From assembly GCA_965242925.1 (NCBI GenBank), contig CBDEUM010000014.1, positions 128,001 to 192,000 on the forward strand: a stretch of DNA of 64,000 nucleotides, given 5' to 3'. Positions 11,415 through 59,394 of this stretch are shown piece after piece. The DNA comes from Roseibacillus sp. Lineage in GTDB: Bacteria > Verrucomicrobiota > Verrucomicrobiia > Verrucomicrobiales > Akkermansiaceae. The notes under the pieces are model-generated. The model was not told the origin of the DNA. It made no database searches and was given only the letters and a program-made list of their open reading frames with translations. The position numbers were made by a program, and so were the translations under genes. Numbering within the stretch: the first letter of the stretch is position 1; each line of letters starts with the position of its first letter.

Positions 11415-11419
11415 TAATT

Positions 11420-17919: not shown

Positions 17920-18049
17920 TCAAACGTATTCCAAGAGTGTTCATGTTATCCGAAAAGAAAAGGAAATACGCGCCCCTGCAGGGGATGAGCCGCTCCTCCC
18001 TCCAATTTAGGATTTGGAGTTTCGCACTCCGCCCCTACGGTCCGCCACC

Positions 18050-20423: not shown

Positions 20424-20466
20424 TCCGCCATTGACGCTGCGGGGTCCACCTCCCCATCGTCGTGGC

Positions 20467-22020: not shown

Positions 22021-22026
22021 TTCATC

Positions 22027-22320
22027 ATGAAAATCGGCCTCCTCGACACCCTGATCTTCATCGCTTTCATCGCACGGGTGATCGCGGTCTCGGTCTACGC
22101 CTCCCGGCGGGAATGAACCGACCAAGACTACTTTCTCTCAGGCCGCAACCTGAAGCGGTGGATCATCGGGATCTCGCTCATCGCGTCCTGCCTTTCCACC
22201 GAACAGCTGGCGGGCATGAACGGGCAGGCCTCTGGCGGGGTGGGCCTGGCAGTCGCCGCGTGGACCTTGCTCGCCCCAGTCACGGTGGGAGTGATCGCAG
22301 TGACAATGGTCTACCGGTAA
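22027..22320 (+). pseudogene. Truncated sodium:solute (SGLT-like) symporter remnant
   Basis: MKIGLLDTLIFIAFIARVIAVSVYASRRE*TDQDYFLSGRNLKRWIIGISLIASCLSTEQLAGMNG...VYR*. This is an SSS N-terminus with an in-frame TGA at 22114-22116, ending at codon 98. Confidence 0.85.
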
Positions 22321-22338
22321 AGCCGGTTCATTCCCCTC

Positions 22339-23784
22339 CTACTGGGCCGTGCCGGGCAGGAAGCGGTAGTAAACTTCCAGCATCAGGGTCGTCAGGCAGG
22401 TCACGTAGTGCACATTACCCAGACCGTGACCTGTGTTGGCGGGAAGAGGCCAGGAACCGTCCTTGTTCTGGGCTGCCAGGGTTGCATCCCGGAAAAGCTC
22501 ATTGTAATCCTTCCAGAACTTGCCGCCGTAGTTGATCATGGCCTGAGACGCATAGTAATGACCGTAGAGGTCGGTGTCCTTGCCCTTCCAGTCGAACTTG
22601 ATGTTCTTGTTGATCACCTTGCAGGCCTTGCGGGGCACGGAGTGGGCTTCCTTGCCCCAGAGCTGGAAACAGAGCGCTCCGGCAGCAGAAAGAGTCGTGC
22701 CGTCACCTCGCGGGTTGGGACCGGTGTAGCCGATCGCTCCACTGGCGTGCTGGTTGCTGGCGAAGGCATCCAGGCCATCCCGTGCACACTTCGCCAAGTT
22801 GCGAAATTCGATCCCGGTATGCTTGCAGGCCTTGAGAGCCTGAAGGCACCATCCCATGACCGAGCTGTCATTACGACGGTCCTCCGTAAAGCGGTAAGTC
22901 CATCCTCCGGCGGCATTCTGACCATCGATAATGGTCTGCCCTCCCAGCTGCACGGCCTCATGGAGACCGGGCAGGTTCACTCCGAGCTGGCTGCAGAAGG
23001 TATAGGCTTCCGCAATGGCGTAGGTTGCGATCGCGTGTTCGTAAACCCACTGATTGGATTGCAGGTCACTTCCCATGCGGCCCTTGTTCTTCGTGCTCTG
23101 GTTCACCAGGTAAGTGATGGCATTGGTCACCGTTTCACCGTACTTTTCGGAGAGTGGGGTTTCGCAGTGCCCGAGATAGGCCAGGAGTGCCAGTCCGGTA
23201 TAAGCGACCTTGTAGCCGCCACCCCATGATCCGTCACCCGCCTGCGTGGTCTGCAACCAGTCGAGGGATTTTACCACCGCAGTCTCACATTCTTCACTTC
23301 CCCCGTTTTCCTTGAGGCGCTGCATGCGGTCCTGAGGCGAACAACGCTTCCGCATCACGGCTGGGATGTTGCCGAAGCCGCCCCCTCCGCCATCTCCACC
23401 GCTTCCCCAGCCCTGGCCGAAGTCATCCCCGCTACCAAAGTCCAGATTTGGTTCTGCTTCGGTTTCCGGAACCGGTACTGCAGTGGGAGAGGGGGTGGTG
23501 GATGCGATCACCTTGGCCATCGAGGAAGAGGGCGCGGACGGCTTGCGCTGTATCTGTGGATTCACCTCCTTCTGATCCATGGTGTCCTCCTCAGGCGCCC
23601 CAGCCTGATAGGTCACGATGGTCGGCGATTTGATAAAGAGATTCGGGAGGAGGATGAACAGAAGAATGAGGACCACGAGAGCGATCACCAGCAAGGCGAT
23701 CACAATGCTGGTGATGACGGAATTTCTCCGCTGCGCTTCGAGGCGGGCCTCTGCTTCAGGACTTAATTGGGCGTGCAGGCTCAT
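22339..23784 (-). CDS. Membrane-anchored prenyltransferase/squalene-cyclase-repeat (alpha/alpha barrel) protein
   Basis: Likely ATG 23784. TM helix, Pro/Gly-rich linker, QW-type repeats QAGDGSW, QNAAGGW, QNKDGSW, C-terminal LMLEVYYRFLP. No DxDD cyclase motif seen. Confidence 0.85.
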   Translation of the reverse strand: MSLHAQLSPEAEARLEAQRRNSVITSIVIALLVIALVVLILLFILLPNLFIKSPTIVTYQAGAPEEDTMDQKEVNPQIQRKPSAPSSSMAKVIASTTPSPTAVPVPETEAEPNLDFGSGDDFGQGWGSGGDGGGGGFGNIPAVMRKRCSPQDRMQRLKENGGSEECETAVVKSLDWLQTTQAGDGSWGGGYKVAYTGLALLAYLGHCETPLSEKYGETVTNAITYLVNQSTKNKGRMGSDLQSNQWVYEHAIATYAIAEAYTFCSQLGVNLPGLHEAVQLGGQTIIDGQNAAGGWTYRFTEDRRNDSSVMGWCLQALKACKHTGIEFRNLAKCARDGLDAFASNQHASGAIGYTGPNPRGDGTTLSAAGALCFQLWGKEAHSVPRKACKVINKNIKFDWKGKDTDLYGHYYASQAMINYGGKFWKDYNELFRDATLAAQNKDGSWPLPANTGHGLGNVHYVTCLTTLMLEVYYRFLPGTAQ

Positions 23785-24115
23785 ACCGGGTCGGATTGAG
23801 GGGATTTTATGGGTTGCTCGAACCCGTTCGAAAAGACAATTCCCTGATAGCTTACCCCTTCTGGATGGAAAATCCGCTCTAAAATCTCTGAAAATAAGGG
23901 AGCCCACCCCGCCAGACCCTACCCCGTTAGGAGGAGAGGACGAGGGAAACCCGGCTCTGCCGTCTTCCACGCAGGCCGCGCCAGCTCCCGGGCCTTCCTA
24001 CGGAATCACCCCTTCCAGGAGGCTTATTGACCTATCTCCGGACCCCACCCTGCCCCGATCACAGATCGGCAGAAGGTGTGTCACCCCGCCTGATCAGAGT
24101 CGCCCCAACCCCGGA

Positions 24116-24937
24116 TCACTCCGCACCAGGTTCCACATTGGGATCATCATCCGGATCGCGGGACCAGACGATGGAGGTGCCCGGTGCCTGGTCCTCCGGA
24201 GTGATGATTTCACCGGAGGCCTTGATCAGCTCGGGAACCCGGCGCACCTCGGTGTGACCGTCCACGAAGAGCAGCACGCCCTTCTGGTTATGGCGGGCGG
24301 CAAAGGCCCGCGGGTTGGCCTTGGGCGAGCCGTTGAACTTCCGCTGGGCCTTCGATTGCTTCTTGTCCTTGGGAAGTCCGCGTTCCAGGAAAATGACCGT
24401 GCTCACCGGTTGCTGAATGGAGGCCAGCGTCCCGGGATCCTTGTAGCCATCCGGCGCACGCCTCTGGAGTCGGCTGTTCATCCCGATCGCAAAGTAGGGA
24501 CGCTCCAGTTTCTTTTCACTCTTGAAGTAGGGAGCCCCTCCCAGGTAGGTCGGATAGCTGCCCTCGTAGAAGGTTCCCGGCGCATTATCCTCCCCCAGCT
24601 GTGCCACCGTCCGGTATCCCATCCGGTCGGGCAGAACATTATACCACGCCTCCTCAGCTTCCTCGCTCGCCGCTACGATCCAGTCCTCGTCGCCACCCGA
24701 AATGTTGGGAATGTCCGCATTCTCCAGAGGAAGACGCCCACCATGATCACTCGTATAATCCACGAAGGCCTGCCCCAGATCCTTGATCTTCTGGGTAGCA
24801 CGCGTGAGGTTTGCACTTTGAACCATGTTGGTGAAACCCTGAAAGGTGATCGACGCCAGGACGATCACGATCGCCACAGCCACGAGCAACTCAAGCAGAG
24901 TAAAGCCTGCCGCCTTTCGAGTGCACCTCCGGTTCAT
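24116..24937 (-). CDS. Type IV pilin-like protein (N-terminal methylation motif plus H-X9-DG domain)
   Basis: GFTLLELLVAVAIVIVLA prepilin motif; C-terminal RHNQKGVLLFVDGH. Confidence 0.92.
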   Translation of the reverse strand: MNRRCTRKAAGFTLLELLVAVAIVIVLASITFQGFTNMVQSANLTRATQKIKDLGQAFVDYTSDHGGRLPLENADIPNISGGDEDWIVAASEEAEEAWYNVLPDRMGYRTVAQLGEDNAPGTFYEGSYPTYLGGAPYFKSEKKLERPYFAIGMNSRLQRRAPDGYKDPGTLASIQQPVSTVIFLERGLPKDKKQSKAQRKFNGSPKANPRAFAARHNQKGVLLFVDGHTEVRRVPELIKASGEIITPEDQAPGTSIVWSRDPDDDPNVEPGAE

Positions 24938-24943
24938 GGGTTT

Positions 24944-25666
24944 CTAGCTGTCAAAGCTCCTCTGGGTCGATGTCAGGATCACGCGATTATTCCCTGAGGC
25001 AACCTGAAGCTTCTCCATAAAATCGGCTATTTTGGCCCCTGATTTCAAGAGAATTCCCCACCGAAGTTCCGTCATCATGCCCGCCTGGATCGATTCCACG
25101 CTGATAAGCTCCGTGGCATCAGCGAATTCCTCGAAAATTGGGCCAAACATCTGATCATACTGAATATCGTTATTCACGCGGATTCTGAGGTTGTGCGAGG
25201 CCCGTTTGGGGGCAAAAGCCTCCTTTTTCGAGAGGATGTAGACGGCAGCCACCATCACGATGGTAGTGGCCACGGCTGTTGGATAGAGGCGCGCGCCCAC
25301 CACCATGCCGGTCATCATGGAAAACAGAATGAAGGCCAGGTCCCGGGCCTGTCCAAGGTTGCGGCGGAACCGGATCATGGCAAAGGCCGCGAACATCCCG
25401 AAGCCGATCGCCGAGGCGTTCGGATGACTGCCGACCACCAGGATGAGAATGGTGGTCACGGTTCCCACGATCACAAGAGTGTGGACATAATCCTGCGAAT
25501 AGCGTGTCCCCCGGTAGGTCGCCTTATAGAGCGTTCCGATAATCAGGTTGAGCCCGAAGCTCACGCCAAGAGCGAAGACCACCTCGACAAACCCGGGGAT
25601 GACAAGATCGAATCCGAGTTTTTCCAGGATGTTTTCATAAACGTCGATAAAGGCCAGGGAGGTCAT
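24944..25666 (-). CDS. DUF4956 membrane protein
   Basis: Likely ATG 25666. Several TM helices, YSQDYVHTL, GMFAAFAMIRFRR..ARDLAF...GMVVG, soluble C-terminal domain; directly downstream of a VTC gene. Confidence 0.88.
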   Translation of the reverse strand: MTSLAFIDVYENILEKLGFDLVIPGFVEVVFALGVSFGLNLIIGTLYKATYRGTRYSQDYVHTLVIVGTVTTILILVVGSHPNASAIGFGMFAAFAMIRFRRNLGQARDLAFILFSMMTGMVVGARLYPTAVATTIVMVAAVYILSKKEAFAPKRASHNLRIRVNNDIQYDQMFGPIFEEFADATELISVESIQAGMMTELRWGILLKSGAKIADFMEKLQVASGNNRVILTSTQRSFDS

Positions 25667-25700
25667 GATTTTGGTAGGGATAGTTTTATAAGAAGACGAG

Positions 25701-26471
25701 TCATGCTGCCGACCCCCGCCGTGCCCGCGCCCCTTCAAGCTGGGCACCCAGAACGGGGTCATGTTTTTCAAGGGATGTGCAGTACTTGCTGAAACTCCGC
25801 CGGCTCAACCCGGTCTCCCCGGCCCGCTGCCGCAGCCAGTAGGGAACCGGCCCGATGGACTTGATCTCCATGATGGAGTCTCCCTCGGGAATGATGAACC
25901 TGCTGAAGTTCTGATCGTCCGGGAGGAGCTTGGGGAACTCAGGACGGCAGCGCAGAAGATTGTCGAACGTGATCCGCAGATGACCGTCCGGCGAACTGAA
26001 GGCATCCCGATCATAGCGAATCTGCATGGAGGGCGCATGTCCCGCTGACCGCATCCCGAGGACTTCGTCGATCACGATACGACCAGCGCGGCCCACCTCG
26101 CTGCGGAGCCCGCGCAAAACATCGTCATTCCCAAGGCCGAATTCCTGGGCGGCCTCAATCGACATGGGCAGGCGGCGCTTCACCCCCAGCCCCTGCAACT
26201 TGTGCTTCACTTCAAGGAATCCCGCAGGAGGAATCTTGGCTGTCTCCGAACCATAAATGCGCAGACGGATCTTGCGGCGACTCTTGAAGCGACGCTGCTT
26301 CTCCCAGTAGCAGTCGCGCTCTGCGGTGTCGTAATACTGCGAGAGAATTGGGTAGTTCCCCGAGTTCCCCGGATTTTGGTCCACAGCAAGACGCTGCGAG
26401 ATCTCATCTTTCCATTGATGATACTGCGCCGCGCTGATCAGAAATTTGTATTCGGTCCTGCTTATACTCAC
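25701..26471 (-). CDS. VTC-domain (polyphosphate polymerase-like, CYTH/TTM fold) protein
   Basis: RTEYKF, SQYYDT, RRKIRLRIY, FLEVKHK, KRR, YDRDAF, RITFD, MEIK, FSKYC. Confidence 0.92.
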   Translation of the reverse strand: MSISRTEYKFLISAAQYHQWKDEISQRLAVDQNPGNSGNYPILSQYYDTAERDCYWEKQRRFKSRRKIRLRIYGSETAKIPPAGFLEVKHKLQGLGVKRRLPMSIEAAQEFGLGNDDVLRGLRSEVGRAGRIVIDEVLGMRSAGHAPSMQIRYDRDAFSSPDGHLRITFDNLLRCRPEFPKLLPDDQNFSRFIIPEGDSIMEIKSIGPVPYWLRQRAGETGLSRRSFSKYCTSLEKHDPVLGAQLEGARARRGSAA

Positions 26472-26841
26472 TACTGCCCTGAAAGGCAGGGAAAAGGGTT
26501 TACGCTGCTCAAGGAGGATTCGTCACAAATTAAGTTTTAGCCAATAAGAGACAGGACGACAACTCCCGATTCTGCCGCCCATTGATCCGTAAATCCCCTG
26601 AATGAGTCACGGTCACTCCCCTCCCGCCTCTTGCAGCCCGGGCAGAAGCCGGCTTTCAATTATTCGGAATCAACTGAACCTGAAGCAACCTCGTCTGCTT
26701 GTCTGATGGATTCGAACACCTGCTAACCCTTCCGGGGGGCCTTCCGGACGCTCGCTCAGGCCTATCACCTTGTGCCTCTCTCAGAACATTTTATGCTCAA
26801 TCTACCACCCCCTCCTTCTGCAACGCATTCCCTCACAGCCC

Positions 26842-29800
26842 ATGTCCTCCCCCTTCCGTGCATGCTGGTTCCTTCCGGGCCTCCTCCTGCTGACTGCCTC
26901 CCCCTCCCTTCCAGCTGCCGACATCATCTGGATCACCGAAAACACGGACCAGAACAATCCCCCGTCACCCGACGACTCCGGTTGGACGGATCTGCTCACC
27001 AGTGCAGGCCACACCGTCAACCGGTTGACGGTGACCAGCCTCGACTCCGATCCCGACAGCCTCGACCGGATGAACGCTAGCGACCTCGTGATCGTCAGCC
27101 GGGATACGAACAGCGGCACCTATGCCAGCAACACCTCCGAGGTCACCGCGTGGAATGATATAGCCACACCCCTGATCCAGATGAGTGCCTACCTTGTGCG
27201 CTCCAACCGCTGGAAGTGGCTCAACAACACCGGCACTCCGATCGCCTCCGGTCCGGATCTCCAGATCCGGGATCCTGCTCATCCGATCTTCGCAGGGATC
27301 ACCCCGGACGACCGCAACCAGTTCGTTCTGCTCACGAACGGAACCGTGAATGTCACTAACCAGTCGAACGCCGGGAACGGAACGGTCCTTGCCACCGACC
27401 CGGGAACCGGAAATCTCTGGATCGCATTCTGGGAACCTGCCACGGAATTCTATGCCGGATCAGGTCAAACGCCAGCAGCTCCGCGGCTCTGGTTTGCCGG
27501 AGGGGAGAGCGCCAACAACCCCAAGGGTGGCGAGAACTTCTCCTCCGCGGGCGAAACGGTTTTCCTGAACGCCGTCAACTGGATGGCCGACGTAACTGTC
27601 GATCCGCCCACCGTGATTAACGGTAGCGGCCAGGAGATCTCCACCAGAACCGCCACTGTGACGGGAGAAGTGACTGACACCGGGGGCGCCCCTCCCAATG
27701 TGACGGTTTACTACGGCAACAACAACGGAGGCACCGATCCGGACGCCTGGAATGCCGGTATCGAAGCTGGCGTCCAGGCGGGAATCTTCTCCACCGCCCT
27801 GACCGGACTCACCCCGGGCACCACCTACTACTACCGCTCCTTTGCAAGCAATTCCGGCGGAGACGACTGGGCCGATTCAAGCACCTCATTTACCACCCTC
27901 ACCCCGCCCACCCCCCCGACGGTGGTCAACTCCCCCGCCAGCAATGTGGGCTTCGCCTCCGCCGAGATCGGCGGGCAGGTCACCGCCACTGGCGGAGAAA
28001 ACCCCACCGTGCTCATCTACTGGGGCGACAACAACGGCGGCACCACCCCGGAATCGTGGGACCAGTTCAACGACCTCTCCACTCAGGATGGGGCCTTCGT
28101 GGACGCCCTTGCCAACCTCACCGACGGGGTCACCTACTACTTCCGCTGCTTCGCCTCCAACTCGGGTGGCTCCGCCTGGGCGGCTTCCACCGGGAGCTTC
28201 ACCACCCTGACCTTCGGTCTCGCCTCCCTCACCAACTCCGCCGCGACCAACGTCGCGGGCGTCTCAGCGCAAATCAATGGCACCGTCACCGCCACCGGTG
28301 GTGACAGCCCGGTGGTCGAGATCCACTACGGCACCACCAACGGAGGCACGAACCCGGGATCCTGGGACTCCTCCGTGACCATCGGCACCCAGTCGGGCTC
28401 CTTTTCCACCGCGCTCAACTCCCTCGCCGCCAGCACCACCTACTTCTTCACCGCTTCAGGAACCAACATCGCCGGACAAGGGTGGGCCACACCCTCGCTC
28501 AGCTTCACCACCCCTGAGATCTCCGACCTCGTCATCAACGAATTCATGGCATCCAACGGGGGCGGCACTCCGGCTCCGAACCAGGTGCCCGGCGCCACTG
28601 AGGACTGGATCGAGATTCACAACCGGGGTAACACCACCGTCAGCCTCGCCGGCTGGCACCTTACCGACAGCGCAGGGAACCTGAACAAGTGGACCTTTCC
28701 CCCGGGAATCACCCTAGCGATGGGCGATTTCCTGGTGGTCTTCGCCTCCGGCAACAACGCGCCGGACGCCAATGGCAACCTGCACACCAACTTCAGTTTG
28801 AGCGCAGGCGGCGAGTACGTCGCGCTGGTCCGCCCCTCGCTCACCGTGGCCAGCGAGTTCGGACCCAGCGCCATGAACTACCCCTCGCAGCAATCCGACA
28901 TCTCCTACGGACTCCATCCCAGCACCCTGGAGTCGGTCTACTTCCAGACCCCCACCCCCGACGCTCCCAACGATGCCGGCGGACAACTGCTGGTCGAGGA
29001 CACCCAGTTCAGCCACAAGCGCGGCTACTACACCTCGGCCATCAACCTCTCCCTCACCACCAACACCCCCGGTGCCACGATCCGCTACACCCTGGATGGG
29101 ACCGTGCCCACCCAATCCACCAACGGCAGCACCTACTCCAGAGCGATCCCGATCAACACCACCACCGTGCTGCGCGTGCGGGCCTTCAAGAGAGGCCTGC
29201 AGGAGACCAAGGTGGACACCCAGAGCTACATCTTTCCAAGCTCAGTGGGCACCCAAACCCGGCCTTCCGGTTACCCGACGAGGTGGGGAAGTGAGCCCAC
29301 CGCCGACTACAACGTGGACATTCAGATCACCCAGTCGCGCCAGTACCGTGCCCGCTTCCTGGAAGGGCTGCGGGACATTCCCACTCTCTCGGTCACCGGC
29401 GAGGAGGACGACTTCTTTGGTTCGAACGGGATCTACGTCGACACCCAGGACCGCAATATCGAAGCCGCCGTCTCCGCCGAATACTTCCATCCCGGCCCCG
29501 TGACCGACGGCGTCAACATCGAGAACGGGTTCCAGATCGACTGCGGATGCAAGCTGCAGGGCGGTGCCAGCCGCACTCCGAGCAAGGCGATCAAGCACTC
29601 CTTCAGCCTGCGCTTCCGCGACCTCTACGGGGCCGGGAAACTCAACTACCCGGTCTTCGATGGGACCACTGTCACTACTTTCGACAGCATCCACCTGCGA
29701 GCCATGTACAACAACTCGTGGATCCACAGCAACAGCGGCCAGCGCGCCCGTGCCACCATGATCCGCGACCAGTGGGCACGTGACTGCATGATCGACATGG

Positions 29801-32800
29801 GCAATGCCGACGGTGGGCAGGGGCACTTCGTGCACTTCTACATCAACGGCATCTACTGGGGCGTCTTCAACCTCCACGAGCGCCTCGAAAACGACCACTA
29901 CGCAGCCTACAACAACTATGAAGACGACGAAGTGCTCGGGCTGAATCCGGGCAGAATCACCTCGGAGGAGAACAGTTCCTTCAATGCCATGAAAGCGGTC
30001 GTCACGAATTCTCGCAGCCCCTGGTCCCGGATCCAGACCGTCCTCGACGTCGACAATTACATCGACTTCGTCATCACCGAGTACTTTGGCCGCAACGCCG
30101 ATTTGAAATCCAACGACAACTGGCGCGCGGCGGGCGGAGGCAGCGCCAACGCCCCCTGGCGCTTCTACTGCTGGGACACCGAGAGAATCCTTGAGGACCA
30201 TACCTCCACCAGCGCCCCCAGCAACAGCGGATCCCTCGACGGAGCCCTTATCTTCGATAATCTCGAGGACCACCGCGAGTTCCGGGTCCGCTTCGCCGAT
30301 CGTGCCTACAAGCACCTCTTCCATGGCGGAGCCCTCACCAACCTTGAGAACCGCGGCCGCTTTCAGAATTACGCCGACCAGATCGACACCGCGATCGTGT
30401 GCGAGTCCGCCCGCTGGGGCGACGACCGGAGCGGAGGGGGATTCAGTGCCAACTACGCACGCAACGAAAACTGGACTCGTGCAGTGTACGGAACTCCAGG
30501 CGGACCGGGCACGAGCCCGAGCAACGGCGTGCTGGGCTCCTGGTTCCCGACTTCAGGAACCAACCGTACCGACCGCATGATCAGCGCCTGGCAATCGAAA
30601 AGATTTTCGGGCAGCTCCGACACCTACCTCGGGACCATCACGGCACCTCTCTTCACCGTCAACGGGGGGAACCAGCACGGCGGTGAAATCCCCGGCGCCG
30701 GAACGCTCTCCGCCACCGCGCCCTCCGGATCGATCTACTACACCACCGATGGGACTGATCCGCGCCTCGAAGGCGGCAGTCTCGCGCCCGGGGCGATCCT
30801 CCTCTCCGGCGGGATGACCTTGCCCGCCAGTGGACTGGTCCGCATGAGGGCCCGGGTGGGCCGCGCCGATTCGTGGTCACCGCTGAGCGAGGCCATCTTC
30901 TATCTCGAACGCCGCGCCACCGCCTCCGATCTGCGCATCACCGAGATCAATTACAATGCAGCCCGCGCCAACGCAGTGGAAGCCGAAGCCGGGGCGAATC
31001 TGGCGACTCCCCGCCTCTTCACCGGTGGGGATTTCGAGTTCATCGAGATCTGCAATGTCAGCACCACTGCCGTCAACCTTGATGGGGTGAAGTTCACAAA
31101 CGGGCTCACCTTCACCTTCCCCGTCACCAACCTTCCCGCGGGTGGATACGTGGTGGTGGTCGAAGACCTGGAAGCATTTGAAGTGCGCTACGGCAAGGAC
31201 CCCACGGTGGCAGGACAGTTTGCCGGCACCCTCGAAAACGATGGCGAACGCATTGCCTTCGCGATCTGGAACGGCACCGGTGGCCAGGACTTCACCTTCG
31301 ACGACGGAGGAACCTGGCCGGGACGAGCCGACGGATTCGGATCCTCACTTGAAATCATCGACACTGCCGGCGACTACGGAAACTCGGAGAACTGGCGTTC
31401 CAGTTGCCAATACAATGGCTCACCGGGTGCTCTCGGAGCCGGCCTCGACGGTCGCATCGTAGTCAACGAGGTCCTCACTAACACCAATCTCCCCGCCGTC
31501 GATCGCATCGAACTTCACAACACCACCGGGGCCTCGATCCCGGTGGCCAATTGGTACCTCTCCGATGCCAATACCAACTACCGGAAGTTCCGTATTTCCT
31601 CCGGCAGCATTCCCGCCGGGGGCTACCTGGATTGGGACGAGAGCGACTTCAATGCCAACCAGAATATCGCCCTTTCTTCCTATTCCGGCACCATTGCGGC
31701 CACTCCCACCACGGTCTCCGATGCCGCACACGGCCTGTCGACGGGAGACGTCATCACGATCTCGGGATACGGCGGAATAGGGGGCTACAACAACACTTTC
31801 GAGGTAACGGTCCTCAATGCCGACAGCTTCACCATTCCGGTTCCCTTCCTTGACAATCACAGCACCAAGGGAACTTACACCAGCGGCGAACCCTTCGCGC
31901 TTTCCTCGCAGGGTGATGACCTCTGGTTGCTCGAGGCGGACGGCGCGGGCAAGTTGCTCAAGTTTGTTGACGCCGTCGAATTCGCGGCTGCCCGCAGCAG
32001 TGAAGCGCTGGGTCGCTGGCCCGACGGCGCAGGGAGCGGCACCCTCGTCAGCATGACCGCCAACACCCTCGGATCCGCCAATGCCGCCGCCCAGATTGGC
32101 CCGGTGGTCATTTCAGAAGTGATGTATCACCCAACTGCGACCCCGGAGAACAGCTACGAATACGTCGAAATCCGCAATTCCGGCTCCCTCCCCGAAAGTC
32201 TCGTCAACTGGAGGCTGCGTGGTGGCGTTGATTTCGATTTCACCACTGCCCACTCACTCTCAGCAGGAGAAAGTCTCCTCGTGGTGGGCTTTGATCCGGT
32301 AGCTGACCCGGTGAGCACAAGTAACTTCCGTTCCCACTACGGAATCGACGCCGGGGTCCTCCTCCTCGGCCCATGGACCGATGGCCCCCTGCGCAATGAC
32401 CACGGCACCGTGCGCCTGCAGCGACCCGACACCCCTCTCCCGGCTGATCCGGCCTTCTACCCACAGGTCACCGAGGACGAAGTGCAGTATCTCGCCATCG
32501 CTCCCTGGCCTACCAGCCCGGCCGGCGGGGGGCAGTCCCTGCAACGGCTCAATTCCTCCCTGTTCGGCAACTTTCCCTCCAGCTGGGTCGGGAAAGAGCC
32601 CTCTCCCGGCACCGGCGCCCAGCAAATGTCGTATGCTGACTTCCGCGATCTCACCTTCGGCCCCGGCTCCCCTCCCGGGTCGGGCGAACTGGAGGACTTC
32701 GACCTCGATGGATTCCTCAATATCGTGGAATATGCCCTCGGACTGAATCCTCTCCTCTCTGACGCCGCCCTCGCGCCCTCACCCGTGGTGGACGGTGGCG

Positions 32801-32997
32801 AACTGACCCTGACTTTCCCGAAAAACACCCTCCTCAGCGACGTCCGCTGCGTGGTGGAGTTTTCCGCCGACCTCATCACCTGGACGCCCCTCGTCGATGT
32901 CGCTGTGTCCTTCGACAACTTCATCGAAGTGCGCAAGGCCAGCATCACCATGGCTCCCTACCCCCGGCTTTTCCTGCGGATTGCCGTAACGCACTGA
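26842..32997 (+). CDS. Giant secreted CotH-kinase / lamin-tail-domain protein (about 2050 aa)
   Basis: Signal peptide from ATG 26842, N-terminal alpha/beta domain, 3 FN3-like repeats, LTD (INEFMASN..DWIEIHN), YTLDG domain, CotH kinase (LQGGASR..K, YWGVFNLHER, NAD..NW, WDTE), three more LTDs, C-terminal module. Confidence 0.9.
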   Translation: MSSPFRACWFLPGLLLLTASPSLPAADIIWITENTDQNNPPSPDDSGWTDLLTSAGHTVNRLTVTSLDSDPDSLDRMNASDLVIVSRDTNSGTYASNTSEVTAWNDIATPLIQMSAYLVRSNRWKWLNNTGTPIASGPDLQIRDPAHPIFAGITPDDRNQFVLLTNGTVNVTNQSNAGNGTVLATDPGTGNLWIAFWEPATEFYAGSGQTPAAPRLWFAGGESANNPKGGENFSSAGETVFLNAVNWMADVTVDPPTVINGSGQEISTRTATVTGEVTDTGGAPPNVTVYYGNNNGGTDPDAWNAGIEAGVQAGIFSTALTGLTPGTTYYYRSFASNSGGDDWADSSTSFTTLTPPTPPTVVNSPASNVGFASAEIGGQVTATGGENPTVLIYWGDNNGGTTPESWDQFNDLSTQDGAFVDALANLTDGVTYYFRCFASNSGGSAWAASTGSFTTLTFGLASLTNSAATNVAGVSAQINGTVTATGGDSPVVEIHYGTTNGGTNPGSWDSSVTIGTQSGSFSTALNSLAASTTYFFTASGTNIAGQGWATPSLSFTTPEISDLVINEFMASNGGGTPAPNQVPGATEDWIEIHNRGNTTVSLAGWHLTDSAGNLNKWTFPPGITLAMGDFLVVFASGNNAPDANGNLHTNFSLSAGGEYVALVRPSLTVASEFGPSAMNYPSQQSDISYGLHPSTLESVYFQTPTPDAPNDAGGQLLVEDTQFSHKRGYYTSAINLSLTTNTPGATIRYTLDGTVPTQSTNGSTYSRAIPINTTTVLRVRAFKRGLQETKVDTQSYIFPSSVGTQTRPSGYPTRWGSEPTADYNVDIQITQSRQYRARFLEGLRDIPTLSVTGEEDDFFGSNGIYVDTQDRNIEAAVSAEYFHPGPVTDGVNIENGFQIDCGCKLQGGASRTPSKAIKHSFSLRFRDLYGAGKLNYPVFDGTTVTTFDSIHLRAMYNNSWIHSNSGQRARATMIRDQWARDCMIDMGNADGGQGHFVHFYINGIYWGVFNLHERLENDHYAAYNNYEDDEVLGLNPGRITSEENSSFNAMKAVVTNSRSPWSRIQTVLDVDNYIDFVITEYFGRNADLKSNDNWRAAGGGSANAPWRFYCWDTERILEDHTSTSAPSNSGSLDGALIFDNLEDHREFRVRFADRAYKHLFHGGALTNLENRGRFQNYADQIDTAIVCESARWGDDRSGGGFSANYARNENWTRAVYGTPGGPGTSPSNGVLGSWFPTSGTNRTDRMISAWQSKRFSGSSDTYLGTITAPLFTVNGGNQHGGEIPGAGTLSATAPSGSIYYTTDGTDPRLEGGSLAPGAILLSGGMTLPASGLVRMRARVGRADSWSPLSEAIFYLERRATASDLRITEINYNAARANAVEAEAGANLATPRLFTGGDFEFIEICNVSTTAVNLDGVKFTNGLTFTFPVTNLPAGGYVVVVEDLEAFEVRYGKDPTVAGQFAGTLENDGERIAFAIWNGTGGQDFTFDDGGTWPGRADGFGSSLEIIDTAGDYGNSENWRSSCQYNGSPGALGAGLDGRIVVNEVLTNTNLPAVDRIELHNTTGASIPVANWYLSDANTNYRKFRISSGSIPAGGYLDWDESDFNANQNIALSSYSGTIAATPTTVSDAAHGLSTGDVITISGYGGIGGYNNTFEVTVLNADSFTIPVPFLDNHSTKGTYTSGEPFALSSQGDDLWLLEADGAGKLLKFVDAVEFAAARSSEALGRWPDGAGSGTLVSMTANTLGSANAAAQIGPVVISEVMYHPTATPENSYEYVEIRNSGSLPESLVNWRLRGGVDFDFTTAHSLSAGESLLVVGFDPVADPVSTSNFRSHYGIDAGVLLLGPWTDGPLRNDHGTVRLQRPDTPLPADPAFYPQVTEDEVQYLAIAPWPTSPAGGGQSLQRLNSSLFGNFPSSWVGKEPSPGTGAQQMSYADFRDLTFGPGSPPGSGELEDFDLDGFLNIVEYALGLNPLLSDAALAPSPVVDGGELTLTFPKNTLLSDVRCVVEFSADLITWTPLVDVAVSFDNFIEVRKASITMAPYPRLFLRIAVTH
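27604..28515 (+). repeat. Three tandem ~100-aa FN3-like repeats within the giant CotH protein
   Basis: Each repeat reads G.VT.TGG..P.V..Y[YW]G..NGGT.P..W......F...L..L....TY[YF]..ASN..G..WA....SFTT. Confidence 0.85.
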
Positions 32998-33253: not shown

Positions 33254-35869
33254 ATGAAACCCACTCGCCAAGTTCTCCTGACGATCGCGGCCGCCGCCAT
33301 CCCCCTCGTCTTTTTCCCGACCGGCGCAGGCGCCGCGAATATTGTCTGGATCACTGAGAACACCGACGCCGCTAATCCACCCTCTCCCGACGACGTCGGC
33401 TGGACCGACCTCTTGACCGCCAATGGCCACACTGTCGTTCGGCGGGATGTCAGGGACCTCGATGTCAACCCGGGCGCGGTGACGGATCTCAATGCCGCCG
33501 ACCTGGTCATCGTCAGCCGCGACACCAATAGTGGAAATTATAACAACGGCGGCGCAGGCGGCGTCGAAGCAACCGCCTGGAACAGCCTCACCTCGCCGCT
33601 CATCCAGATGAGCTCCTACCTCGTGCGCTCCAGCCATTGGAAGTGGTTCAACAATACAGGCAACCCCACCCACAGCGGGAACATGGATGTGCTCGACCCT
33701 AGGCATGCGATTTTCGCGGGCATCACCCTCGATGCCAACGACGAGTTTGCCGCCATTGAGTCCGGGAGTGTCAACCTGACCGGTTCCCCACTGGCTTCCG
33801 CCGGAAACGCCACCGTCCTGGCAACCGCGCCCAACGGCGGCAACATCTGGATTGCGCTTTTCGACGCCGGAGTCGAGTTTTACGCCGGATCCGGCCAGAC
33901 GCCTGCCGCGACACGAATGTGGTTCTCCGGGGGCATCACCAACAACAATCCCAAGGGTGCCGAAAACTTTAATGCCGACGGAGAAACCGCTTTCCTCAAT
34001 GCCGTGACATTCCTGACGGGACCTCCCATCGCCGACAACGACAGCGACGGCGACGGGATGGATGACCAATGGGAGATCAACAACTTCGGAGACCTCTCGC
34101 GCGACGGCCTCGGCGATGAAGACAACGACGCAGCCACCGACAGGCAGGAGCACGACGCCGACTCCAATCCGAACAATACCGATACCGATGGCGACACCCT
34201 CACCGACGGCGCCGAAATCAATACTCACGGCTCAGACCCCACCATGGCTGACACCGATGGCGATTCCCTCACCGACGACGCCGAGGTCAACACTCACGGC
34301 ACCGATCCGAGCCTCGCCGACACCGACGACGACGGCCTCAGCGACAGCGAGGAGATCGACGAAGATAACGGTTTTGTGACTGATCCCACCAATGCTGACA
34401 CCGACGGCGACGGCGTTGATGACGGAAACGAACTCGCCGGGGGGAGCAATCCCACCGATCCCAACGACGCCCCTGAGGTGGGCTTGACTATTCTGTTCCT
34501 TGGAAATGCAGCCGGTCCTACCGCGGGCGCGGACGGCGCCATCATGACTTTTCTACAGGACTCCTACGGCACCCAGAACGTCACCTACCTGCAGTCCAGT
34601 GTAGCCCAGCCCGGTGACGAGCTTGGCTTTGGGGCTCTCCTGCTCTCCTCCACTTTCGGCTCCGGCAGCGCACGGGGCAAGTTTCAGGACTCTCCCGTCC
34701 CGATCCTCAACTGGGAAGAGGCCCTGGCCCGAAATGCCGGGGGCGAATTCGCCGTCACTGACGGGCGCACCAAGGAAACCGCGTCCCATTCCATCACCAT
34801 CAATGTGGAGCATCCCATCACCGCGGGGTTCCAGGCCGGACAACGCGTCCAGATGACCACCGGCGCCGCCGAGTTCTGGTGGTCCACCGGCCTGCAGGCC
34901 CCCGGCGCCGTCTCCCTTGCCAGTGACGACACCAGCCCCACAAACGGCTTCCTCACCATCGTGGAAGCAGGGGATGAACTGCTCACCGGTCAACCGGCCC
35001 CCGGTCGCCGCATCATGCTCGGCATCACCGACAACACCTTCAACTTCTTTACCGACGACGCCAGGACCCTCTTCGCCCAGTCCATCGACTGGCTCCTGGG
35101 ACTCAGTGACGACGCCAACCGGTTCCAGCTCACCGAAGTCTCCCATGACCCGATCTCCAGCGTCCTGGCCATCAGCTGGGAGAGCAGGGCTGGAAAGCTC
35201 TACAATCTCCGCAGCATCCTTGACCCGGGCTCCGCGACTCCCCTGGAGTGGCCGGTCTTTGGCGGGAATATTGATCTCGTGGCTACTCCCCCGGAGAACA
35301 CCCTGACCATTCCCCTGCCCGATGAACAGTCCCGGTTCTTCGTAGTTGAAGAGTTCAATGCACCGCCCGTGATCCTCTTCGCGGACGACCTTGAGTCGGG
35401 AGCCGAGGGCTGGGCCACCGTCGTGAACGATGCAACCGGAAACACCCGGTGGGAACTCGGATCACCCTCCGGTTCCACCGGACCCCTCACCGGCGCCGGT
35501 GACTCCGCCACTGCGTGGTCCACCAATCTCGGCGACTACGGTCCGGACTCCGACATTTCCCTGCGTTCCCCCGCCTTCGACCTGAGCGGTGTGGCCAGCG
35601 CGGAATTAACCTTCAAGGCCTTCCGCGATGCCGACGGATTTGGCGACTCCGCGGCGGTGCGTTTCCTGCGTGCTGCCGACCTCCTGCAACTGGGCGCGGA
35701 AACGGTGATCGACATGACAGTCTTTGATCCCGACTACACGAGCCTCAGCATCCCGATCGTTCCGGAGGCCCTGGGCGAGAACGTGATCATCGAGTGGACT
35801 TTCGTGAGCGACGTCAGCGCGGATGCCTTCAGTGGACTGACCATTGACGACATCGAGGTGATCGAATAG
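33254..35869 (+). CDS. Secreted modular protein: two GATase-like alpha/beta domains, TSP3-like Ca-binding repeats, C-terminal beta-sandwich
   Basis: Signal peptide. N-terminal domain about 60% identical (manual count) to the N-terminus of 26842-32997. DTDGDxLxDxxE repeats. C-terminal domain shared with 55093-57723. Confidence 0.85.
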   Translation: MKPTRQVLLTIAAAAIPLVFFPTGAGAANIVWITENTDAANPPSPDDVGWTDLLTANGHTVVRRDVRDLDVNPGAVTDLNAADLVIVSRDTNSGNYNNGGAGGVEATAWNSLTSPLIQMSSYLVRSSHWKWFNNTGNPTHSGNMDVLDPRHAIFAGITLDANDEFAAIESGSVNLTGSPLASAGNATVLATAPNGGNIWIALFDAGVEFYAGSGQTPAATRMWFSGGITNNNPKGAENFNADGETAFLNAVTFLTGPPIADNDSDGDGMDDQWEINNFGDLSRDGLGDEDNDAATDRQEHDADSNPNNTDTDGDTLTDGAEINTHGSDPTMADTDGDSLTDDAEVNTHGTDPSLADTDDDGLSDSEEIDEDNGFVTDPTNADTDGDGVDDGNELAGGSNPTDPNDAPEVGLTILFLGNAAGPTAGADGAIMTFLQDSYGTQNVTYLQSSVAQPGDELGFGALLLSSTFGSGSARGKFQDSPVPILNWEEALARNAGGEFAVTDGRTKETASHSITINVEHPITAGFQAGQRVQMTTGAAEFWWSTGLQAPGAVSLASDDTSPTNGFLTIVEAGDELLTGQPAPGRRIMLGITDNTFNFFTDDARTLFAQSIDWLLGLSDDANRFQLTEVSHDPISSVLAISWESRAGKLYNLRSILDPGSATPLEWPVFGGNIDLVATPPENTLTIPLPDEQSRFFVVEEFNAPPVILFADDLESGAEGWATVVNDATGNTRWELGSPSGSTGPLTGAGDSATAWSTNLGDYGPDSDISLRSPAFDLSGVASAELTFKAFRDADGFGDSAAVRFLRAADLLQLGAETVIDMTVFDPDYTSLSIPIVPEALGENVIIEWTFVSDVSADAFSGLTIDDIEVIE
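34030..34470 (+). repeat. Acidic thrombospondin-type-3-like repeats (DxDGDGLxDxxE...GTDP)
   Basis: About six successive D[ST]DGD/DDD motifs with ~23-aa period. Confidence 0.8.
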
Positions 35870-50182: not shown

Positions 50183-50460
50183 GGCGGAATTCTGATTACA
50201 GCAGGCACACCCCTTGGCCCACCTAAAATATTCAATCGCCTGTTCCCACCTGCAGGCCTGCCGTCGGCCTCCTTGAAACATGACCCCGTTAAGGGAACCG
50301 GAAAATCACTGGTCAGGGAACCGTCTGCCGCGATCCGGACGGGAACCCGCCGGGATCGAATCCCCGGTGGACGATTCGGATTTGACCAGGAGGATGGTAT
50401 CGCGGACCCTTAACACTGAACAAACCCCATCGGATTGGATTGGTCCGACCACCCTCTTCC

Positions 50461-59177: not shown

Positions 59178-59394
59178 CGTTCTGCAGCGTGAATCTTTCA
59201 GCAGTCCTGACAGCACGTCACGCTGTCGCATTCTCGTCCCCGGGTCAACCACCCGCTGAATCCGCATCCCACCCACCGCATTTGACGGACTTGCCTTGTT
59301 GAATTAGAGTCCAGTCAGGGTAGAGCGTCCCCCCCACGCCAGCGTGCAGACTTGCAAGCCCGTGTCGCACTCCCTATCCCTGTCCCCCCCCAAC

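Follow-up and report, generated by a model that had tools for sequence, protein, structure and literature searches.

The Roseibacillus locus described here is a new variant of a cassette of CotH, VTC and DUF4956 genes that is already in print beside Gram-positive pel operons. Its VTC and DUF4956 genes belong to an obligate pair that probably produces a phosphate polymer and, by analogy with related genomes, delivers it to the outside. We consider it quite plausible, if tentatively, that a conserved bacterial module is present here in its Roseibacillus-type form, with synthesis coupled to outward transfer and a tie to CotH. The window, the whole stretch of DNA that was analysed, comprises 64,000 nt of one Roseibacillus sp. 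contig and contains the following features:

22339–23970, minus strand: squalene-cyclase-like repeat gene, downstream of the pilin gene (frame of 543 aa, start likely near 23784)
24116–24937, minus strand: H-X9-DG prepilin gene (273 aa, ATG at 24937; N_methyl)
24944–25666, minus strand: DUF4956 gene (240 aa, ATG at 25666; Pfam frame 24944–25771)
25701–26471, minus strand: VTC gene (256 aa, GTG start; Pfam VTC)
26472–26841, no strand: divergent intergenic region between the VTC and CotH genes (370 nt)
26842–32997, plus strand: giant secreted CotH gene (2051 aa from the ATG at 26842; Pfam frame 26770–32997)
50461–54945, plus strand: second secreted CotH-family gene (frame opens at 50440)
59395–63216, plus strand: third secreted CotH-family gene (frame opens at 59344)

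A VTC/DUF4956/prepilin order with a divergent CotH gene of about 2050 aa had been described in a sequence-only reading of the window, and Pfam matches and inspection of the junctions bore out each of these features. The end of the VTC stop codon (25701) lies 34 nt from the DUF4956 ATG (25666), the end of the DUF4956 stop codon (24944) lies 6 nt from the pilin ATG (24937), and 370 nt separate the VTC start (26471) from the divergent CotH ATG (26842). RNA-library contigs from 4 studies cover 22336–26496, and transcript contigs bridge the pilin/DUF4956 junction (2 runs) and the DUF4956/VTC junction (1 run). When 8 of the clade's upstream regions were aligned, the VTC/CotH intergenic region showed a block conserved in relatives, comprising about 26559–26572 (GAATCGGGAGTTGT on the minus strand) and TTGTGACG at about 26521–26528; a consensus promoter scan of this region gave nothing above shuffled sequences. 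The genome carries 1 VTC gene, 1 DUF4956 gene and 44 CotH matches, and our own CotH model recovered 43 frames, equal to 4.3% of the genome; the number of secreted CotH genes is put at ~42. PPK1, PPX and PPK2 are clustered on another contig of the same genome, and VTC would therefore be dispensable for bulk polyphosphate.

Sequence and structural modelling identify the VTC protein as a putative polyphosphate polymerase, a predicted cytoplasmic triphosphate-tunnel enzyme resembling Vtc4. It matches profile positions 2–232 of 235 in PF09359 (E 1.6e-36, 126.5 bits against a cut-off of 23), and in Pfam the 256-aa protein consists of the VTC domain alone, without an SPX or a membrane domain. Comparison of the family profile with PDB sequences gave significant matches only to Vtc4, Vtc2 and Vtc3 (best Vtc4 3g3q, E 3.2e-12), and the structure model (pLDDT 91.8) had its best Foldseek match in Vtc4 (3g3r_B, E 1.3e-14, TMq 0.72), with the first tunnel enzyme other than VTC at E 2.4e-7. 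The tunnel motifs listed previously (RTEYK, RKIRLR, EVK, KRR, RITFD, EIK and FSKY) are all present in the translation, and the homologue alignment, the PDB profile and the Foldseek model show the Vtc4 catalytic set to be intact. Residues R69, R71 and E202 correspond to Vtc4 R264, R266 and E426 in the profile alignment to 3g3q/8i6v and are invariant in 25 homologues, and K9, which we take to be the counterpart of Vtc4 K200 with its catalytic role, is kept in at least 90% of them. PMC9911596 describes the yeast R264A/R266A/E426N variant as catalytically impaired, joint mutation inactivating VTC. Triphosphatases and class IV cyclases have the tunnel fold as well, with fold-search matches at E 2e-7 or weaker, and literature searches found no assay of any bacterial VTC-domain protein, two points that would suit a triphosphatase, or a maker of another phosphoanhydride like other triphosphate-tunnel enzymes, in a module handling that small molecule. 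We consider such a function improbable, as the protein resembles Vtc4, Vtc2 and Vtc3 far more than any hydrolase in both sequence and fold and the residues whose joint mutation kills the polymerase are invariant.

The DUF4956 protein matches PF16316 with 57.6 bits against a cut-off of 30.6 (E about 1.6e-15 to 1.7e-15), and all 26 aligned homologues match the same family. Its layout begins with an N-terminal helix, continues with five hydrophobic helices and closes with an ACT-like domain; in the model (pLDDT 75.6) the helices occupy residues 26–147 and a beta-alpha-beta-beta-alpha-beta domain residues 158–233. Fold searches recognised no transporter fold for the helices and matched the C-terminal domain to SerB (Z 9.2) and to the MgtC C-terminal domains 2lqj (Z 8.2) and 7qa5 (Z 7.0). 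The proposal that DUF4956 is a Vtc1-type membrane partner was not upheld: DUF202 (PF02656) was sought in the genome (89.9% complete) and not found, and DUF4956 combines its helices with an ACT domain, so that a 'split VTC complex' applies as an analogy, not as homology. Membership of the MgtC family was likewise not supported, with MgtC PF02308 scoring 14 bits against a cut-off of 31.4 and a profile-profile (hhalign) probability of 1.7%. Sub-threshold Pfam MgtC matches fall on the helices in 20 of 26 DUF4956 family members (best E 0.0013), and homology between DUF4956 and MgtC is not established. The ACT-like C-terminal fold common to both is a widespread one.

MgtC is a regulator, not a channel, and the MgtC/SapB/YhiD proteins resemble DUF4956 in layout, with an ACT-like cytoplasmic domain behind the helices of the membrane domain. 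Under a reading without export, DUF4956 would be an MgtC-like membrane regulator whose ligand-sensing ACT domain tethers or controls a cytoplasmic VTC enzyme making local polyphosphate or turning over triphosphate, the module tuning phosphate or energy state during the production of envelope proteins, CotH among them. The MgtC C-terminal domains among the fold matches and the sub-threshold matches of the family speak for this reading, as does the interpretation of the Streptococcus intermedius homologue as MgtC-like and of the polymerase as cytoplasmic by the authors of PMC12345266. Tight adaptor/duct operons without a pump in relatives (adaptor in 15 of 33 loci) are hard to fit to a purely cytoplasmic function, the profile-profile probability is low, and PPK1, PPX and PPK2 are already present in the genome; we therefore see the regulator as a minority possibility.

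Co-occurrence was assessed in a sample of 201 Verrucomicrobiota genomes (32 with VTC, 169 without), and gene neighbourhoods in 33 sampled VTC loci of the phylum and in 80 closer loci. DUF4956 was present in 32 of 32 VTC genomes with matching copy numbers, and was the immediate same-strand neighbour of VTC in 77 of the 80 closer loci, contig ends interrupting the remaining 3; among 14 control genomes, the 3 that have VTC are also the 3 that have DUF4956. With at most 10 candidates scored per genome, CotH was found in 31 of the 32 VTC genomes against 12 of the 169 VTC-free genomes, and in 32 of 32 after inspection of the single exception (G050), which has a CotH gene next to its VTC gene (Pfam 37.6 bits). 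The co-occurrence of the three genes, named beforehand as a check, is thus observed across the phylum, although the Fisher p of 1.7e-25 for VTC and CotH overstates the association because related genomes are not independent. The control genome of Bacillus subtilis has CotH without VTC. The 6 genomes with at least 8 CotH among the matches listed all carry VTC. CotH lies in the stretch around 20 of the 33 sampled VTC loci and is the gene right after DUF4956 in 12; loci of the Chthoniobacter type (L094, L099, L109) have VTC, DUF4956, pilin and CotH in this order on one strand, and the divergent VTC/CotH arrangement is kept in 10 clade loci. In 39 of the 80 closer loci (L046–L084) the pair stands without CotH, pilin or adaptor within the stretch, which reaches up to 10 kb on each side.

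Chance could also have placed a CotH gene next to the VTC operon in so CotH-crowded a genome, with the pilin an unrelated neighbour. In favour of this, the 43 CotH frames amount to 4.3% of the genome, the CotH genes adjoining VTC are polyphyletic (at least 12 changes), and pilin relatives exist without VTC. By our estimate, however, a CotH gene is expected directly beside a given gene in only a few per cent of cases (~2 × 43 / few thousand genes). Chance adjacency is largely refuted by the phylum-wide co-occurrence and neighbourhood data and is very improbable indeed: the linkage recurs in genomes with only 1–4 CotH among the matches listed (G046, G139, G146, G197 and G205) and in differing arrangements across families, and the pilin, with just one other protein of its kind in the genome, begins 6 nt after DUF4956 in a place kept as far as Chthoniobacter. 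VTC has no dedicated CotH partner, and in CotH-rich genomes some of the adjacency may be chance.

The giant protein matches CotH PF08757 at aa 940–1222 of the 26770–32997 frame (E 5e-17, 62.8 bits against a cut-off of 23.8), and the frame also holds 4 LTD stretches and CHB_HEX_C. From the ATG at 26842 its N-terminus, MSSPFRACWFLPGLLLLTASPSLPAAD, resembles a signal peptide, and is followed by an N-terminal module of ~250 aa, FN3-like repeats, an LTD, CHB_HEX_C, the CotH kinase and more LTDs. The presence of two more secreted CotH proteins in the window was confirmed by Pfam CotH matches (E 5.8e-52 for 50461–54945 and 2.8e-32 for 59395–63216), both having an LTD, CHB_HEX_C and a hydrophobic signal-like N-terminus. 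N-x-D and W-D motifs occur in all three copies, and the giant CotH retains the residues corresponding to B. subtilis D228 and D251 (RNADLKSNNW, CWDTE); according to PMC7821199 these are the catalytic aspartates, and the CotH studied there uses ATP. The CotH profile matches Bacillus cereus CotH (5jd9, E 2e-36), and the two catalytic aspartates are a further likeness to the Bacillus spore-coat kinase, but the window CotH is secreted by a non-sporulating Gram-negative and lies within 2051 aa together with lamin-tail and carbohydrate-binding-type modules. CotH is hugely expanded in marine Verrucomicrobiota, and given this expansion (4.3% of the present genome; 27, 37 and 39 matches in three related genomes) CotH chemistry could bear on algal polysaccharide handling.

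Support for outward transfer comes from the operons of relatives. An adaptor gene (HlyD_3 down to E 1.4e-11) follows VTC and DUF4956 in 15 of the 33 sampled loci, and a TolC-like protein (OEP down to E 2.9e-15) follows the adaptor in 10 of these 15, with operon junctions that overlap or measure less than 15 nt. No ordinary pump gene (ABC, RND or MFS) was found in the VTC-DUF4956-adaptor-duct loci checked; the operon ends after the duct in L121, L122, L130 and L140, and the genes next after it in L127, L131 and L137 are not pumps. Tripartite efflux systems consist of a HlyD-family adaptor, a TolC-family duct and an inner-membrane pump. The operons of the relatives are similar in placing a HlyD-type adaptor and an OEP-family protein after DUF4956 in one tight unit, but differ in the missing pump, and DUF4956 would be an unprecedented inner-membrane partner. 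A phosphate-selective porin follows DUF4956 in one locus (E 1.9e-11), and a group of marine Akkermansiaceae has PPK2 two genes upstream. Neither adaptor nor duct is present in the Roseibacillus window, and a scan of its genome with models of the VTC-linked adaptors and ducts gave one weak adaptor match and no duct. The earlier proposal of an outward polyphosphate supply is therefore favoured by the relatives' operons and, in Roseibacillus itself, rests on analogy with them.

Export need not serve CotH. Polyphosphate might leave the cell as an end product, a surface or matrix polyanion or a store of cations or phosphate, with CotH co-selected and using another donor. In line with this, the studied CotH is ATP-dependent (PMC7821199), the adaptor/duct and porin variants need no CotH (none lies near 10 of the 15 adaptor loci), the pair stands alone in 39 of the 80 closer loci, and 12 of 169 genomes have CotH without VTC. 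This would leave unexplained the retention of CotH in 31–32 of 32 VTC genomes and its place directly after DUF4956 in 12 of the 33 sampled loci. ATP is not expected outside the cytoplasm, which also counts against this reading, and we rate end-product export as conceivable but on the unlikely side.

The operon position taken by the adaptor and duct in relatives is held here by the pilin. It matches N_methyl PF07963 (E 2.4e-6, 27.3 bits against a cut-off of 21.2) and has the features of a class III signal peptide (MNRRCTRKAAG/FTLLELLVAVAIV), namely a basic N-terminus, G at −1, F at +1, E at +5 and a hydrophobic helix. The translation carries G/FTLLE and H-X9-DG (HNQKGVLLFVDG), and the DGH part of the motif is conserved in 19 aligned orthologues; the DUF1559 Pfam model gave no match on the pilin, an H-X9-DG protein of the DUF1559-like kind. 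The nearest Atlas clusters carry N_methyl plus SBP_bac_10, and a 33%-identical relative occurs in a VTC-free genome (G010). Candidate machinery for prepilin processing and assembly is present in the Roseibacillus genome, with a Peptidase_A24 match above cut-off (30.8 bits) and 7 T2SSE ATPase matches. Full-length orthologues lie directly 3' of DUF4956 in 31 of the 80 closer loci, reaching as far as Chthoniobacter, and never alongside the adaptor. The suggestion that the pilin is a CotH substrate found nothing in its favour, and since the pilin occupies the same operon position as the adaptor/duct pair without ever co-occurring with it, participation in the outward route is no less likely.

Of the sequence-only reading as a whole, the VTC-DUF4956 pairing, the CotH co-occurrence, the catalytic set and, through the relatives, the export idea are supported, and the Vtc1 counterpart and the pilin substrate are not. 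In the module that we prefer, the soluble Vtc4-like enzyme, working on the inner side of the cytoplasmic membrane, would polymerise the gamma-phosphate of NTP into polyphosphate and pass the chain to its obligate partner DUF4956, a small inner-membrane protein whose basic cytoplasmic loops are conserved and which has an ACT-like domain. Many double-membraned relatives would then lead the chain onward by way of a HlyD-type adaptor in the periplasm and a TolC-like duct; in the Roseibacillus lineage, where the adaptor and duct genes are absent, a dedicated H-X9-DG pseudopilin stands in their operon place. The ~42 secreted CotH proteins would then draw phosphoryl groups from the exported polymer, or use it as substrate or scaffold, outside the cell where ATP is lacking. 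That polyphosphate is the phosphoryl donor of CotH is conjectural and, in our judgement, unlikely. Still more doubtful is the full scheme, in which exported polyphosphate would be the phosphoryl currency of ~42 giant CotH proteins, glycans and surface proteins would be phosphorylated without ATP, and the pseudopilin would replace a TolC-type duct in carrying or presenting the polymer across the periplasm.

Eukaryotic VTC complexes (Vtc4/Vtc3/Vtc1; PDB 3G3Q, 7YTJ, 8I6V; PMC9911596) share with the bacterial enzyme the tunnel domain profile, fold and key residues, and would share the logic of synthesis coupled to passage through a membrane partner. The bacterial enzyme differs in lacking an SPX sensor and a fused membrane domain, its partner is DUF4956 rather than the three-helix DUF202 of Vtc1/3/4, and the proposed destination is the cell exterior, not the vacuole. 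In Gram-positive pel loci, cotH, a 'polyphosphate polymerase' (VTC) and DUF4956 (with DUF4832) are accessory genes (bioRxiv 10.1101/768473). The mBio 2025 study (PMC12345266) places the S. intermedius trio SIR_1594/1593/1592 at the pel locus, reports that Pel-dependent aggregation falls when the DUF4956-like and CotH genes are deleted, and gives the authors' statement that the trio was not found outside pel loci. What the trios have in common is that CotH is secreted, that the VTC-domain protein is soluble and has the catalytic residues, and that the membrane protein combines ~4 helices with a cytoplasmic ACT domain. The Roseibacillus locus, in contrast, has no pel operon and belongs to a two-membraned organism; its CotH is divergent, giant (2051 aa) and one of ~42 paralogues, a pseudopilin follows DUF4956, and its relatives carry an adaptor/duct pair that Gram-positives could not use.

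VTC and DUF4956 form a widespread bacterial gene pair, to which the present data add a pseudopilin variant that is mutually exclusive with the adaptor/duct variant, and the occurrence of the trio beyond pel loci, in the window and in the phylum sample. If the proposed module is real, bacteria would have a third polyphosphate route in addition to PPK1 and PPK2, and this route would be the first with coupling to export; it would also offer one answer to how secreted bacterial kinase-fold enzymes obtain a phosphoryl donor where ATP is lacking. Under the more doubtful full scheme, a marine polysaccharide-degrading Verrucomicrobium could phosphorylate glycans or surface proteins without ATP outside the cytoplasm. 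A genome with one VTC, one DUF4956 and separate PPK1, PPX and PPK2 offers a clear genetic design for testing.

Downstream of the pilin, the squalene-cyclase-like gene (22339–23970) encodes a product with one hydrophobic anchor, a low-complexity linker and a repeat region, and its SQHop_cyclase_C match is weak (E 6e-4). It is doubtful that this gene is part of the VTC system; its linkage to the locus is confined to the Roseibacillus clade, and it occurs in 11 of the 80 closer loci, 3' of the pilin in 10 (L033–L042) and upstream of VTC in one (L048).

The locus belongs to a known and functionally uncharacterised cassette, of which it is a variant marked by its pseudopilin and by a giant expansion of CotH. 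It comprises a minus-strand operon and a divergent plus-strand neighbour, with two more CotH genes elsewhere in the window.

Principal features (window coordinates)
25701–26471, minus strand: VTC-domain protein, 256 aa, GTG start (Pfam E 1.6e-36)
24944–25666, minus strand: DUF4956 protein, 240 aa (Pfam E 1.6e-15)
24116–24937, minus strand: prepilin-type protein, 273 aa (N_methyl E 2.4e-6)
26842 (ATG) to 32997, plus strand: giant CotH-family protein, 2051 aa (Pfam CotH E 5e-17)
50440–54945 (gene 50461–54945), plus strand: second CotH protein, signal-like N-terminus
59344–63216 (gene 59395–63216), plus strand: third CotH protein, signal-like N-terminus

Junctions read base by base gave gaps of 34 nt between VTC and DUF4956 and 6 nt between DUF4956 and pilin, and 370 nt separate the operon from the giant CotH start. 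The four families named by the sequence-only reading were each matched by Pfam, its VTC motifs all occur in the VTC translation, a prepilin signal (G|FTLLE) and the H-X9-DG motif occur in the pilin, and the two additional secreted CotH proteins that it described are present with signal-like N-termini. A cotH/'polyphosphate polymerase'/DUF4956 trio is described as an accessory set beside Gram-positive pel operons (bioRxiv 10.1101/768473), and in Streptococcus intermedius deletion of CotH and a DUF4956-like gene is reported to have reduced Pel-dependent aggregation; the authors leave the mechanism unexplained and state that they did not find the trio outside pel loci (PMC12345266). In the literature, subscription journals aside, we found no paper assaying a bacterial VTC protein, naming DUF4956 as a transporter or linking CotH to polyphosphate as donor. 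If demonstrated, the system as a whole would count as a notable discovery; the window contributes a variant and comparative support rather than mechanism.

The names attached to close homologues and loci indicate a marine, Roseibacillus-like member of the Verrucomicrobiota. The genome of the window (4.58 Mb, 89.9% complete) carries one VTC, one DUF4956 and 44 CotH matches. Three of 14 control genomes (B. thetaiotaomicron, C. glutamicum and M. acetivorans) matched VTC, the identical three matched DUF4956, and CotH was matched in these and in B. subtilis. An even sample of the phylum (201 genomes of at least 90% completeness, except for the window's own) contained VTC in 32 genomes, DUF4956 in 33 (all 32 with VTC, plus G147) and CotH (E ≤ 1e-10) in 43. 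Of the VTC genomes, 32/32 have DUF4956 and 31/32 have CotH; CotH was also present in 12 of the 169 genomes lacking VTC. The VTC–CotH association has a Fisher p of 1.7e-25, which exaggerates its significance, since the sample includes related genomes that do not count as independent. The sole VTC genome without a counted CotH (G050) encodes a 1594-aa CotH divergent from VTC (Pfam 37.6 bits, cut-off 23.8).

Fetched VTC loci were scanned with our own models of CotH, DUF4956, VTC, a HlyD-type adaptor and a TolC-like duct, with Pfam applied to a subset. For Set A we took the best 80 of the 193 VTC loci confirmed in the genome collection, all of them from Verrucomicrobiota and many from close relatives; a same-strand DUF4956 follows VTC in 77/80 (contig ends cut the other three), a full-length pilin orthologue follows DUF4956 in 31/80, and CotH lies within the fetched stretch in 17/80, with no adaptor or duct in any of the 80. 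Set B (33 VTC loci, drawn from 31 even-sample genomes) has CotH in 20/33, which in 12 loci immediately follows DUF4956 as a protein of ~950–1010 aa with Laminin_G_3. Adjacency of CotH and VTC by chance is largely excluded by this recurrent phyletic and neighbourhood linkage across the even sample, Set A and Set B.

The best-supported account of the cassette has four steps. A Vtc4-like enzyme would produce polyphosphate at the membrane, DUF4956 would carry the chain into the inner membrane or across it, the adaptor and duct in relatives, or the pseudopilin in the window, would deal with periplasm and outer membrane, and the product would serve secreted CotH enzymes. Homology and operon logic in relatives point to the first two steps, while the last is suggested by co-occurrence alone. 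The sequence-only reading, in which VTC and DUF4956 form a split VTC-like synthase/exporter feeding polyphosphate to secreted CotH kinases, is partly supported, and the observation behind it is real and non-random. One of the main rivals holds that polyphosphate is exported as an end product with no tie to CotH chemistry. Compatible with it are 39 loci of Set A (L046–L084) with the VTC–DUF4956 pair and no pilin, CotH, adaptor or duct. Of five further genomes reached through loci, one (G004) has VTC, DUF4956 and zero CotH matches, and the other four have 7, 27, 37 and 39 CotH matches; in the even sample, with at most 10 candidates scored per genome, the six genomes listing at least 8 CotH matches all carry VTC.

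The polymerase assignment in this four-step account draws on profile and structural comparisons. A profile of 25 VTC homologues searched against all PDB sequences matched only yeast Vtc4, Vtc2 and Vtc3, the best match (3g3q, E 3.2e-12) spanning the whole tunnel domain; profiles were required, as single-sequence PDB searches with VTC, DUF4956 and the CotH domain returned nothing meaningful. A second main rival is that VTC is a tunnel enzyme other than a polymerase. Triphosphate-tunnel hydrolases and class IV cyclases do appear in the fold search, at E 2.4e-7 or weaker, and the closest fold to the predicted structure (pLDDT 91.8) is Vtc4 (3g3r_B, E 1.3e-14, TMq 0.72). VTC K9 aligns with Vtc4 K200, which we take, following the 2009 structure paper, to have a catalytic role. 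Vtc4 R264, R266 and E426 correspond in the profile alignment to R69, R71 and E202 of the window protein, all three invariant across the 25 homologues, and a yeast complex with these residues jointly substituted is described as catalytically impaired (PMC9911596). Neither an SPX domain nor a membrane segment is present in the VTC protein, and the sole 'longer' protein found in a search for fused forms (481 aa) contained the VTC domain alone, weakly suggesting that fusions are rare.

The organism's ordinary polyphosphate gene set is on another contig of the same genome, where matches to PPK2, PPX/GppA and PPK1 fall inside 3.5 kb (C3:16821–20333), so that VTC represents an extra polyphosphate system and not the sole one. 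In two of the 39 Set A loci with the pair alone, L047 and L073, the second gene upstream of VTC is PPK2 (Pfam E 6e-64 and 2e-61), and L051 and L056 have frames matching its position and size; this neighbourhood is a second link of the VTC–DUF4956 pair to polyphosphate metabolism, in one clade only. The gene order in this marine Akkermansiaceae group is a divergent PPK2 (8057–8938 in L047, 7943–8827 in L073), Amidohydro_2, VTC and DUF4956.

The model of DUF4956 (pLDDT 75.6) consists of an N-terminal helix, five hydrophobic helices (26–147) and a C-terminal beta-alpha-beta-beta-alpha-beta domain (158–233). Structural matches to the C-terminal domain were ACT domains (SerB, Z 9.2; 1zpv, Z 8.4) and MgtC C-terminal domains (2lqj, Z 8.2; 7qa5, Z 7.0), and Pfam MgtC matches the helices below threshold in 20 of 26 family members (best E 0.0013). 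A third main rival, an MgtC-like regulatory role with no export, draws on this likeness, which is one of architecture, homology not being established, as the Pfam matches are sub-threshold and hhalign gave a probability of 1.7% (against a shallow alignment of 5 MgtC sequences). Foldseek returned no match to the model at E ≤ 0.001. A wide structural search was convincing for the ACT-like domain only: the helical matches, to archaeal virus coat proteins (Z 8–9, rmsd 8.5), are within helical-bundle noise, and no Vtc1-like or transporter fold was listed, an absence that excludes nothing. DUF202, the domain forming the yeast channel, was not found in the window's genome, and DUF4956 is a different family. 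Prediction of a VTC–DUF4956 complex from alignments of both gave a score of 0.00 and a mark of 0.32, values that speak in neither direction on binding. The invariant residues of DUF4956 concentrate in a pair of short, basic loops (YRGTRYSQD; IRFRRNLGQ.RD), which by the positive-inside rule would face the cytoplasm, where they would suit uptake of a polyanion. Two side observations concern this gene: DUF4956 and pilin form a single open frame of 522 aa in L040 (8792–10357), perhaps through natural fusion, perhaps through an error of assembly, and in L114 the second gene upstream of VTC (8464–9162) is a genuine member of the MgtC family (E 9.5e-37), possibly by coincidence.

In Set B a HlyD-type adaptor follows DUF4956 in 15/33, with a TolC-like protein next in 10. 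In the subset searched with Pfam, eight of nine adaptors had a HlyD_3 match (E 4.6e-11 to 6.8e-8; the exception was L136) and four of seven ducts an OEP match (E 2.9e-15 to 3.3e-8), the remaining three ducts being homologous to these four by our own model. Adaptor and duct junctions overlap or are <15 nt (e.g. L127, L137, L140). The operon stops after the duct in L121, L122, L130 and L140, and the genes past it are unrelated in L127 (no family), L131 (melibiase and sulfatase) and L137 (TilS and methyltransferase); none of these seven loci has an ABC, RND or MFS pump beside adaptor and duct. L123 has a divergently placed CotH upstream of VTC, and directly at the DUF4956 end begins a protein of the phosphate-selective porin family Porin_O_P (10808–12016, E 1.9e-11).

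The pilin and adaptor variants are mutually exclusive (0/31 and 0/15). Nineteen aligned pilin orthologues, from Roseibacillus to Chthoniobacter, are conserved over their full length, with common motifs WYN.LP, N..LQR, F.DGH and a C-terminal DPN, and Chthoniobacter-type loci (L094, L099, L109) have the single-strand order VTC, DUF4956, pilin, CotH. The pilin also has a conserved basic stretch at about PKAN.RAF..RHN.KG. The window's genome encodes 7 T2SSE ATPases and also gave a match to a prepilin peptidase. Among its frames, the window pilin is not one of hundreds of paralogues: prepilin signal and H-X9-DG occur together in only two, the window pilin and a 58%-identical copy, which lies at the very end of contig C28 (C28:17133–17945). 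On C14 (294090–303995), a 40%-identical paralogue lies ~5 kb before a CotH. With at most 12 candidates scored per genome, full-length relatives in the even sample were found in G010 and G038 only; that of G010 (33% identity) is in a genome without VTC, DUF4956 or CotH, and the pilin was rejected as a marker confined to VTC genomes.

A CotH profile of 22 domains from the window's genome matched B. cereus CotH (5jd9) at E 2e-36. All three window copies have aspartate in the columns that align with D228 and D251 of B. subtilis, residues whose substitution is reported to abolish kinase activity (PMC7821199), and the VTC-adjacent CotH reads RNADLKSNNW and CWDTE there. The giant CotH has a signal-peptide-like N-terminus, four lamin-tail stretches and CHB_HEX_C, and groups with 9 divergently placed copies of close relatives in a tree of 78 CotH domains. 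VTC-adjacent copies are scattered over this tree (at least 12 changes needed), so a dedicated VTC-linked subfamily was rejected and the VTC link is with the CotH family rather than one orthologue. Our own model found 43 CotH frames in the window's genome, mostly of 1200–2700 aa and totalling 65,708 aa (4.3% of the genome); three related marine genomes have 27, 37 and 39 matches, and we are aware of no description of this expansion. The gene after the giant CotH (33254–35869, plus strand) specifies a secreted protein of 871 aa that carries TSP3 repeats and whose first ~250 aa are 56% identical (E 2e-75) to the CotH N-terminal module (26842–27600, plus strand), over which Pfam found no family.

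Contigs of four RNA libraries from four studies cover 22336–26496. The pilin/DUF4956 junction is spanned in two runs, by a single contig each, and the DUF4956/VTC junction by a single contig of a third, giving weak support to the minus-strand genes being transcribed together, since contigs cannot prove one transcript and DNA carry-over is possible. The X16–X18 RNA libraries have little or no cover on the CotH gene, and contigs cannot rank genes. A promoter and terminator scan of 22000–27000 gave nothing above shuffles. An alignment of 8 relatives shows a conserved block upstream of VTC (~26521–26572, minus strand), in which GAATCGGGAGTTGT is followed ~30 nt further on by TTGTGACG; the block was not picked up by a sigma-70 scan and may be a promoter or an operator.

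The gene after the pilin (22339–23970) encodes an anchored protein with squalene-cyclase-like repeats and holds this place in the close clade only; on C30 (33903–41655), its close paralogue (E 1.9e-228) lies directly behind another giant CotH. The other genes of the window are those typically seen in a polysaccharide degrader, namely sulfatases, a BNR sialidase-like protein, GDSL and SASA esterases, MBOAT and PSCyt/PSD1/DUF1501 genes. Just past the minus-strand operon, 18014–22020 (plus strand) holds an MBOAT acyltransferase (E 3.2e-23), a 327-aa frame without a family and a SASA-type acetylesterase-like protein, which suggest glycan O-acetyl handling nearby.
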